DNA of 8,660 bases from Candidatus Heimdallarchaeota archaeon (lineage in GTDB: Archaea > Asgardarchaeota > Heimdallarchaeia > Heimdallarchaeales > Heimdallarchaeaceae): NCBI GenBank assembly GCA_030611665.1, contig JAUWPI010000131.1, forward strand, positions 1 through 8,660, read 5' to 3'. Every line of letters begins with the position of its first letter. Position 1 is the stretch's first letter. A model generated the notes under the pieces. That model saw only the letters and a list, made by a program, of their open reading frames with translations. It had not been told where the DNA came from and ran no database searches. Both the position numbers and the translations under genes were made by a program. Below, one piece after another: positions 1,549 through 1,729 of the stretch.

Positions 1549-1729
1549 CCTAGCAAGGATTTCAGGTTCGGAATGAGTCTGAGTGTTACCCCTTCACTAT
1601 GGCCGCGACGAATCGCAACTTATGACCGTTCCCAAGTCCTCTCGGAACATAGTACCAAGCCACACGTGGAAGGACTTAACTTTCCCGACCATCTGGAACG
1701 CGTCCAGATGTATCTCTGACCTTACTAGG
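1549..1729 (-). rRNA. circularly permuted 5S rRNA(-like) gene: 121-nt permuted core at 1560..1680, 49-nt 5' leader at 1681..1729, 11-nt 3' tail at 1549..1559
   Basis: The minus strand reads 5'-CCUAGUAAGG UCAGAGAUA [CAUCUGGA CGCGU UCCAGAUG] GUCGGGAAA. Next comes GUUAAG UCCUUCCAC G UGUGGCUUGGUACUAUGUUCCGAGAGGACUUGGGAACGGUCAUA A GUUGCGA, which is 5S helix II 3' strand, helix V, loop E, helix IV and helix I 3' strand. It continues UUCG, then UCGCGGC CAUA GUGAAGGGG UAACAC UCAG ACUCAUUCCGAAC CUGA AA, which is helix I 5' strand, loop A, helix II 5' strand and helix III/loop C. It ends UCCUUGCUAGG-3'. All hallmark archaeal 5S motifs are present (CCAUAG, ACUCAUUCCGAAC, AAGUUAAG, GGUACU/GGGAAC loop E, CCGAGAGG) but in swapped gene order. 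G+C is about 51% by my count, against very AT-rich flanks. Confidence 0.75.

Follow-up and report, generated by a model that had tools for sequence, protein, structure and literature searches.

The stretch of DNA analysed here, 8,660 nucleotides (nt) of contig JAUWPI010000131.1 from a Candidatus Heimdallarchaeota archaeon of the Asgard family Heimdallarchaeaceae (hereafter the window, meaning this whole stretch), carries a 5S ribosomal RNA (rRNA) gene with the order of its two halves exchanged. The whole permuted unit lies on the minus strand from 1730 to 1543 and comprises a leader, the 3' half of the 5S rRNA, a UUCG loop, the 5' half, a tail and a U6 run. An earlier reading of the window that used no database searches (the sequence-only reading) had recognized the circular permutation, with the 3' half first and the 5' half following a helix I closed by UUCG, and our analysis agrees. 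The leader (1729 to 1681) reads GCCUAGUAAGG-UCAG-AGAUA-(CAUCUGGA CGCGU UCCAGAUG)-GU-CGGG-AAA and is followed by the 3' half (GUUAAGUCCUUCCACG ... GGGAACGGUCAUAAGUUGCGA). The 5' half, after the UUCG loop, is UCGCGGCCAUAGUGAAGGGGUAACACUCAGACUCAUUCCGAACCUGAAA, and the tail (1560 to 1549), UCCUUGCUAGG, runs directly into the U's. The UUCG tetraloop occupies 1609..1612 and caps helix I (GUUGCGA, 1613-1619, with UCGCGGC, 1602-1608) at the place of the two ends of an ordinary 5S rRNA. Once the halves are placed in canonical order, helices II-V and the conserved sequences of loops A, C and E are present.

Because of its permuted order, the gene as encoded scores 18.1 bits with the Rfam model RF00001, against a gathering threshold of 38. 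None of 13 permuted loci reaches the Rfam 5S threshold. Searches of the window at gathering and permissive thresholds returned only the sub-threshold 5S match, no permuted 5S family and nothing for the leader hairpin.

The unit has putative transcription signals of its own. A TATA-like box, TTAAAAA (1753..1759, minus strand), is centred about 26 nt upstream of the first base of the clamp described below, a spacing read off the sequence. It is identical in the three closest aligned relatives and in most relatives listed (TTCAAAAA in L010), and is the candidate promoter of an independent 5S transcription unit. The U6 run (1543..1548) would serve as an archaeal terminator. Among the three aligned relatives its six T's are kept in the closest two (GGTTTTTT), with GGTCTTTT and GGTTTTTG in others, and in further relatives the U runs at this position are interrupted or shorter. 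Since the box lies upstream and the U run directly follows the last clamp base, the primary transcript probably starts and ends at the clamp.

Structure and covariation of the leader and tail

The leader and the tail of the window are joined by a perfect helix. The 5' strand of this clamp, (G)CCUAGUAAGG (1720..1730), pairs over 1729 to 1720 with the tail sequence CCUUGCUAGG (1558 to 1549), giving 10 base pairs (bp) with one U.G, as the sequence-only reading had noted. The clamp is followed in the leader by site 1, UCAG(A) (1715..1719, with UCAG at 1719-1716), the first candidate partner of a CCUGA near the tail. Next is a hairpin of 8 bp with a 5-nt loop, CAUCUGGA-CGCGU-UCCAGAUG (1710 to 1690), which was also described earlier and forms an extra arm. 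Beyond the hairpin lie site 2, CGGG (1684..1687), and an AAA (1681..1683) that abuts the 3' half. Site 2 is complementary to CCUG (1563..1566) at the end of the 5' half. CUGA (1562-1565) overlaps this CCUG and is, in the mature fold, the 3' strand of distal helix III. A second AAA (1560..1562) separates the CCUG from the 3' strand of the clamp (1549..1558).

An alignment of 27 distinct Heimdall sequences (alignment A2) is the basis of the counts given for the clamp, the hairpin and the two sites. Nine of the 10 clamp pairs have changes on both sides and 93% of the cells are paired. In the hairpin this holds for four of the eight pairs (94% of cells paired), so that the compensatory changes mark it as a selected structure. 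Control structures shifted by one to three columns have 25-43% of their cells paired. The clamp and the hairpin are therefore real structures beyond what chance would give. Helix I pairs in 100% of cells, with capping loops UUCG, UGCG, UACG or UAUG among the relatives. In the alignment with the closest relatives the leader and tail vary no more than the 5S core.

The sequence-only reading took the clamp for a permanent, helix-II-like closure of new ends at loop B. The location is inaccurate, and a permanent closure of this kind is not supported. The chain is broken between CUGA-AA and GUUAAG, which is the internal loop of helix III, and in sister lineages the clamp sequence is wholly different and only the pairing is conserved. 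It is swapped wholesale for UCUAAUGGCA/UGCCAUUAGA (L073, L047), UCUCAACGAUG/CACCGCUGAGA (L027, L033) or UCUAGUAUAG/CCAUAUUAGG (L034), and CAAAACU/AGUUUUG is also among the clamps of sister lineages. Clamps unrelated in sequence are found in L073/L047, L027/L033, L035/L062 and all of the lineages outside Heimdall.

Distribution of the permuted gene

The species-representative genome collection was scanned once for the order GGGAA...GGYCATAG...CGAAC, and 72 loci matched. About 30 of these are labelled as Heimdall and have the architecture of the window. The same breakpoint occurs, with quite different sequence, in MAGs (metagenome-assembled genomes) labelled Baldrarchaeota (L059, L070), Njordarchaeota (L064), Jordarchaeales (L069) and Promethearchaeia (L038), as well as in a locus labelled Promethearchaeati (L036) and one labelled Thermoproteota (L082), the sequence of which resembles L069. 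The permuted 5S gene is thus not confined to the family of the window. The other matches are ordinary 5S genes with a chance TGGGAA upstream. In six of the matched loci (L018, L043, L066, L067, L076 and L085, most of them labelled Nitrososphaeraceae) a conserved box, TGGGAA(G/C)(A/G)TTAAATTA, stands about 45 nt upstream of an ordinary 5S gene. The box is probably a promoter element and the reason that these loci matched the scan. One contig with a Thorarchaeota label (L037, JBHLQZ010000003.1) has a 5S locus of the Heimdall L012/L075 type and is probably mis-binned.

The gene is syntenic among close relatives. Homologues of the RPA-like open reading frame (ORF) at 358-1020 share 83-95% identity with it in MAGs named Heimdallarchaeota or Heimdallarchaeaceae and 52-68% in the rest of the clade. 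The contigs that carry them have the same permuted 5S gene in the same place, downstream of a DUF5752 gene.

Two complete genomes each hold two permuted copies: L035 and L073 in Ca. Heimdallarchaeum aukensis (CP084166), and L062 and L047 in Ca. H. endolithica (CP084167). The authors of these genomes reported that no approach had predicted their 5S genes (PMC8813620); the permuted gene order explains this failure. Copies 1 and 2 have different flanks, and their mature regions differ at a few positions.

Bulge-helix-bulge motifs in other lineages

In eight sequences (L036, L038, L059, L064, L069, L082, L035 and L062) a solver for bulge-helix-bulge (BHB) motifs finds a textbook BHB formed by the leader and the tail. 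The layout runs from an outer helix (5-16 bp) through a bulge of 3 nt in the tail strand to a central helix of 4 bp, which joins the last bases of the 5' half to an element of the leader, and on through a 3-nt bulge in the leader strand to the start of the 3' half. With shuffled leaders and tails a correctly placed motif of this kind arises in 0.1-0.7% of trials per sequence. The cleavage rule of the motif (two nucleotides 3' of each strand of the central helix) was applied to all eight. Cutting and joining yields CCGAAC-NNNN-AA-G(U/C)(U/C)AAG in every case, which is the canonical sequence of helix III. The junction is kept despite a register shift of one nucleotide between CACG-GA^A with CGUG-AA^A (Baldr, Jord) and ACGG-AA^A with CCGG-AA^G (Njord).

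The cleavage rule was verified on transfer RNA (tRNA) genes that sit within a few hundred nucleotides of 5S copies. The tRNA-His genes of L047 (5527-5617, minus strand) and L027 (974-1063, minus strand) contain a 16-nt intron at the canonical 37/38 position with a clear BHB (GUGGU|CUGU|GG^G ... GCAG|AA^A|ACCAU). These introns at the 5S loci imply that the splicing machinery is needed in these organisms. A 124-nt tRNA at L059 (4443-4566, plus strand; Baldrarchaeota MAG), found by Rfam and missed by ARAGORN, is probably a multi-intron tRNA gene; ARAGORN did not resolve it and L059 was left out of the rule check.

The split motif of the window

The central helix of the BHB is retained in the window type. 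C(A/G)GG-AAA stands directly upstream of GUUAAG in all 27 Heimdall sequences and is complementary to CCUG in each. Site 2 and CCUG pair in 27 of 27, the second pair being A-U in 13 and G.U in 14, and site 2 occupies the position of the leader strand of the central helix (H') in the textbook motifs. What all lineages share, directly ahead of the mature 5' end, is an element of 4 nt that pairs with CCUG beside the tail and has A-rich bulges of 3 nt on its flanks, as in a BHB cleavage motif. In the window this central helix of 4 bp is CGGG (1687-1684) with CCUG (1566-1563), or alternatively UCAG with CUGA. The covarying clamp flanks it as outer helix h', and GUUA/UAAC of helix III, with 98% of cells paired, as inner helix h.

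The two alternatives correspond to two conformers. In the site-1 conformer the clamp is followed by a 3-nt bulge and 4 bp. This is the minimum free energy (MFE) structure of the window and the top rank of the BHB solver for it. The first pair of site 1 is broken in six of the 27 relatives, and site 1 is absent from Heimdallarchaeum copy 1. The site-2 conformer places a bulge beside the mature 5' end and contains a three-way junction; it is the MFE structure of L004 and L035 and lies 4.5 kcal/mol above the MFE in the window. Bulge B2 (AAA, 1683-1681) is clean in the site-2 conformer. Bulge B1 (AAA or AAU, 1562-1559) is clean in the site-1 conformer only and falls inside the three-way junction in the other, whereas both bulges are clean in all eight textbook sequences. 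Because the conformers of the window lie within 4.5 kcal/mol and the MFE structure varies among relatives, thermodynamic folding cannot choose among site 1, site 2 and the native 5S fold.

The two Heimdallarchaeum copies differ in their motifs. In copy 1 a hairpin and a helix of 5 bp (GUGGU/ACCAC) stand between the outer helix and the BHB, which is perfect and lies behind a three-way junction. Copy 2 has a split motif like that of the window. In the window, copy 2 and L027 types the 5-bp helix has shrunk to 0-3 bp, and the clamp abuts the tail bulge. The second partner of CCUGA, (U/G)CAG(A), directly follows the clamp and is separated from the hairpin by 3 nt in most sequences and 4 nt in the subclade of the window. 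A direct repeat flanks the hairpin block (GGUCAG and GGUCGG, window 1684-1720, minus strand; GGUCAG twice in L004). It suggests that the hairpin was inserted into a once perfect ancestral motif, ...AAGGU-CAGG-AAA-GUUAAG.

Our preferred reading is that each conformer would present one canonical bulge to an endonuclease of broad specificity. Asgard archaea including AB_125 have an (alpha-beta)2 endonuclease with an L1 loop that accepts relaxed BHB and bulge-helix-loop (BHL) motifs (PMC5829648). If the site-1 cut in the leader were used for joining, CUGAAA would be linked to AUACAUCUGG and the hairpin retained. Against this stands the homology with copy 1, which is found in one and the same genome as the split copy. 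A two-step model of nested introns, with the site-1 cut followed by removal of the hairpin as a BHB intron, was considered and is not favoured. Once the first ends were joined, two extra nucleotides (GU, AA, CA or UA) between the hairpin stem and CGGG/CAGG would create a 3x2 internal loop instead of a bulge.

Predicted processing and mature product

We think it likely that the leader and tail are a BHB-type processing module, the removal of which, with joining of the ends, restores a canonical and probably circular 5S rRNA. The leader (1729 to 1681) and the tail (1560 to 1549) would lie outside the working 5S rRNA and would form the motif jointly with the bases at the end of the 5' half. The clamp would act as h', CGGG with CCUG as the central helix (strands H' and H), AAA at 1683-1681 and 1562-1560 as the bulges and GUUA/UAAC as the inner helix. 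The tRNA-splicing endonuclease would cut two nucleotides into each bulge, between 1682 and 1681 (the 5' cleavage) and between 1561 and 1560 (the 3' cleavage, which falls one nucleotide further 3' in the site-1 register). The ligase RtcB would then join ...CCGAACCUGAA to AGUUAAGUCC..., linking 1561 to 1681. This would restore a continuous helix III and a 121-nt 5S rRNA (1561..1681), ordered as 3' half, helix I cap and 5' half. In the lineage of the window the extra hairpin arm and a second, weaker copy of H' (UCAG, 1719-1716), both between the clamp and the central helix, would split the motif. One conformer would then show the tail bulge beside the clamp and the other the leader bulge beside the mature 5' end.

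The junction predicted for the window, CCGAACCUGAA+AGUUAAG, is that of canonical 5S helix III (TTCCGAACCTGAAAGTTAAGTCC in the window type), and the predicted products are 121 nt long. In alignment A3 the products of nine rearranged Asgard genes align with five ordinary archaeal 5S rRNAs and fold with them (helices II-V). Compensatory changes are found in 22 of 23 predicted pairs, including distal helix III beside the junction. Since helix I is capped by a UUCG tetraloop, the ligated product would be a covalently closed circle, and no route back to conventional ends is visible in the permuted 5S. The pairings, their covariation, the geometry of the motif and the canonical sequence of the predicted junction are observed directly.

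The sequence-only reading took the leader hairpin for an expansion segment. Judged by homology with copy 1, the leader that contains it is not part of the mature RNA, and a hairpin is likewise present in the excised leader of that copy.

Extended to its full scope, the proposal is that in Heimdallarchaeia and a number of further Asgard lineages the 5S rRNA of the ribosome is a covalent circle made from a permuted gene by the splicing endonuclease and RtcB, that the arrangement is ancient within Asgard, and that a hairpin has split the motif of the window into two conformers, each presenting one cleavage site. We give this combined proposal an even chance. An ancient origin would follow from the single helix III breakpoint that all the lineages share.

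Origin of the permuted gene

The leader and tail had been read as vestiges of the 5S halves left by a tandem duplication. In the window the tail resembles the 3' half no more than chance would give, and the similarity of the leader to the 5' half is borderline. Its local alignment with the 5' half scores 22; dinucleotide shuffles score 16.2 +/- 3.4 (p = 0.07), and mononucleotide shuffles give p = 0.036. In a control, the score of the leader with the 3' half is 19.5. The tail and the 3' half share only UCCUU (p = 0.62). Leaders compared with their own 5' halves elsewhere give p = 0.002 in L007, 0.035 in L038 (19 of 24 positions collinear) and 0.041 in L069, and p = 0.22-0.71 in the remaining nine sequences including L004. 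Values below 0.05 are thus found in four of 13 sequences counting L004; without it, eight of 12 are not significant (seven of 11 when lineages are combined). A Fisher combination over 11 lineages, calculated by hand, gives about 0.06. Leaders score equally high z-values against the 5' halves of other lineages.

Part of the likeness has a structural cause. The similarity of the leader to the 5' strand of helix III is forced by pairing with the same partner, and that of the tail follows automatically from its complementarity to the leader. Because the clamp is constrained for pairing only and is unrelated in sister lineages, its likeness to loop A and helix II in the window is most simply a coincidence. 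An ancestral vestige of helix II was rejected as the main explanation on the same ground.

Tandem duplication is the usual model for permuted RNA genes and a natural one for any of them, and may apply here, although the sequences of the leader and tail do not demonstrate it. No tandem pair, the intermediate that the sequence-only reading had proposed to seek in relatives, was present at any locus examined. One exact-pattern pass through 241 million metagenome records for the contiguous junction ATTCCGAACCTGAA(0-3)GTTAAG gave five hits and no unpermuted Heimdall-type gene or tandem intermediate, in a scan that had no positive control to gauge the number of permuted Heimdall copies in the collection. 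Four of the five hits are not 5S, and the fifth, as we read it, resembles a collinear 5S gene of another type, probably a bacterial one. Overall the earlier observation is partly confirmed and its interpretation partly supported.

Alternative explanations

Several points weigh against the processing model. Only three of the four central pairs form in L036, L064, L082 and the top-ranked solution for L035, which are half of the eight textbook cases. The window itself has no textbook BHB: where a helix would connect B1 with the central helix on the leader side there is an insert of 35 nt that contains the hairpin, and the short b helix of copy 1 is reduced to GG/CC. Its MFE structure uses site 1, the own cleavage rule of which would leave the hairpin in the product, and the MFE folds of the relatives alternate among site 1, site 2 and a native fold closed by the clamp. 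About 20 window-type sequences have an identical 5' strand of the clamp, a hint of some additional constraint. Cleavage, ligation, circularity and the order of events are steps that we infer from these genomic sequences. Some of the same observations would fit a mature RNA of about 181 nt in which leader and tail persist as the decayed remains of a tandem duplication, with a permanent clamp and the hairpin as an expansion segment. In its favour are the conservation and covariation of the clamp and hairpin and the MFE structures of L010, L024, L027, L028 and L033, where the clamp closes the native 5S fold. Collinear similarity between leader and 5' half is seen in the window (0.04-0.07), L007 (0.002), L038 (0.035) and L069 (0.04). 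Such an RNA, however, does not explain why C(A/G)GG-AAA before GUUAAG is invariant and complementary to CCUG in 27 of 27 sequences, or why textbook BHBs stand at the same place in other Asgard lineages and in Heimdallarchaeum copy 1. The presence of copies 1 and 2 in one genome argues for one common mature product, and the unrelated clamps of different lineages imply that the likeness to helix II is not ancestral. With the tail at chance (p = 0.62), the combined Fisher value at about 0.06 over 11 lineages and cross-lineage z-scores as high as those within lineages, we regard the retention of the leader and tail on the mature RNA as improbable.

The evidence of the motif would serve equally well if the leader and tail were trimmed and the ends left unjoined. 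The 5S rRNA would then be linear, permuted and 121 nt long; its internal loop of helix III would be nicked, with helices II and III keeping the molecule together. The nick, between CUGA-AA and GUUA, would be flanked by base-paired segments, and the 5S rRNA of brown-algal mitochondria functions as a permuted linear molecule (PMC4267664). Yet archaeal BHB cleavage leaves a 2',3'-cyclic phosphate and a 5'-OH, ends that RtcB normally takes as substrates and that are joined in tRNA splicing, in the circularization of pre-16S and pre-23S rRNA (PMC12918454) and in the permuted signal recognition particle (SRP) RNA (PMC4731332). The exact canonical length of the junction in every lineage, despite the register shifts, is expected with ligation and not required without it. 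Trimming without joining is therefore rather unlikely in our view, and ligation into a canonical 5S rRNA remains the preferred reading. There is a very slim chance that the locus is a decaying pseudogene or a rearrangement artefact, with a normal 5S gene elsewhere, as the sub-threshold Rfam score might suggest. Against this, the gene is syntenic in many independent assemblies, including two complete genomes, and all of its helices are kept by compensatory changes. No normal 5S gene was found by the authors of the complete genomes (PMC8813620), and the single exact-pattern scan of 241 million metagenome records, run with no positive control, returned no contiguous Heimdall-type junction.

Neighbouring genes

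In the syntenic relatives genes for an AIRS-domain protein and HypF follow the 5S gene, in place of four minus-strand ORFs of the window. They are a TnpB/Cas12f-TNB fragment (2823-3212), a VIT1 gene reduced to its C-terminal part (3483-3818), a TnpB-like ORF of 518 amino acids (4294-5850) and a HerA/DUF87 ATPase of 811 amino acids (6148-8583). Judged by the gene order of the relatives, the window seems to carry a mobile-element insertion. A tRNA-Ser(GCU) gene adjoins the permuted 5S in several Heimdall lineages (L026, 1517-1599; L035, 6779-6865; L062, 7422-7508). In the window this gene lies at 3373-3455 (plus strand), and an ORF for a membrane protein of 291 amino acids and the TnpB fragment stand between it and the 5S. 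The DUF5752 ORF (1032-1481, minus strand) encodes 149 amino acids in the window against 115 in most relatives (108-127 in the rest). Its real start is probably further downstream, and the gene need not reach the 5S terminator.

Comparison with known systems

The 5S is the one rRNA thought never to enter the archaeal splicing and circularization pathway. Should the model hold, an rRNA would join the clients of the tRNA-splicing machinery, and the "missing" 5S genes of complete Heimdallarchaeum genomes and many Asgard MAGs would have a concrete answer. The model then predicts that the closest archaeal relatives of eukaryotes have a circular RNA in their ribosome. The annotation and the completeness estimates of Asgard genomes would gain at once from a dedicated covariance model, and the processing proposed here is directly testable with existing enrichment cultures and metatranscriptomes.

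To our knowledge, no cellular (non-organellar) genome encodes its 5S rRNA in permuted order. The literature searched, with incomplete coverage, held no description of a permuted or circular 5S in Asgard or other archaea and only the case of brown-algal mitochondria, so that a permuted, BHB-flanked gene seems undescribed both for 5S rRNA and for Asgard archaea. The mitochondrial 5S rRNA of brown algae (mtPerm-5S) is permuted with helix I as a closed hairpin (Valach et al. 2014, PMC4267664). It shares this hairpin, and ends that lie elsewhere, with the Asgard genes. Its ends, however, are at the junction of the alpha and gamma domains (helix I/helix V), its product stays permuted with no BHB or rejoining, and it is organellar. 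With a break in the internal loop of helix III, the Asgard genes fall outside mtPerm-5S as defined by its ends. The 5S expansion segments are extra helices on a canonical core and belong to a mature collinear RNA (PMC7530397, PMC7812874), unlike the hairpin of the window, which by homology with copy 1 sits in a leader outside the mature RNA.

Archaeal 16S and 23S rRNAs are excised at a BHB in the long helix of leader and trailer and circularized, and circular 23S rRNA is found in ribosomes; a 2026 survey states that the archaeal 5S, unlike these, does not undergo excision and circularization (PMC12918454). A permuted 23S rRNA is described from Pyrococcus (PMC7758197). In those cases, Pyrococcus included, the genes are collinear and any permutation arises at the RNA level, whereas the Asgard 5S is permuted in the gene. 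Permuted tRNA genes (Cyanidioschyzon merolae, Thermofilum) likewise have a BHB formed by leader and trailer, pass through a circular intermediate and are presumed to have originated by tandem duplication. The tRNA circles are reopened at the acceptor end by RNase P and tRNase Z. The Asgard 5S shares the BHB of leader and trailer with them but has helix I sealed by a UNCG-type tetraloop, with no reopening site evident.

The nearest precedent comes from Thermoproteus. In its permuted SRP RNA the splicing endonuclease cuts a BHB formed by leader and trailer, and the RNA becomes a circle (Plagens et al. 2015, PMC4731332). The Asgard gene differs in that it encodes 5S rRNA, its hosts are Asgard archaea of several classes instead of Thermoproteales, the motif of the window is interrupted by a hairpin arm and the processing is predicted from sequence. 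In both, the 3' part stands ahead of the 5' part, leader and trailer form a BHB and the gene was missed by standard annotation. The functional SRP RNA of Thermoproteus is a circular product of the tRNA-splicing endonuclease and RtcB, and it is this route that we propose for the 5S rRNA of Asgard archaea.

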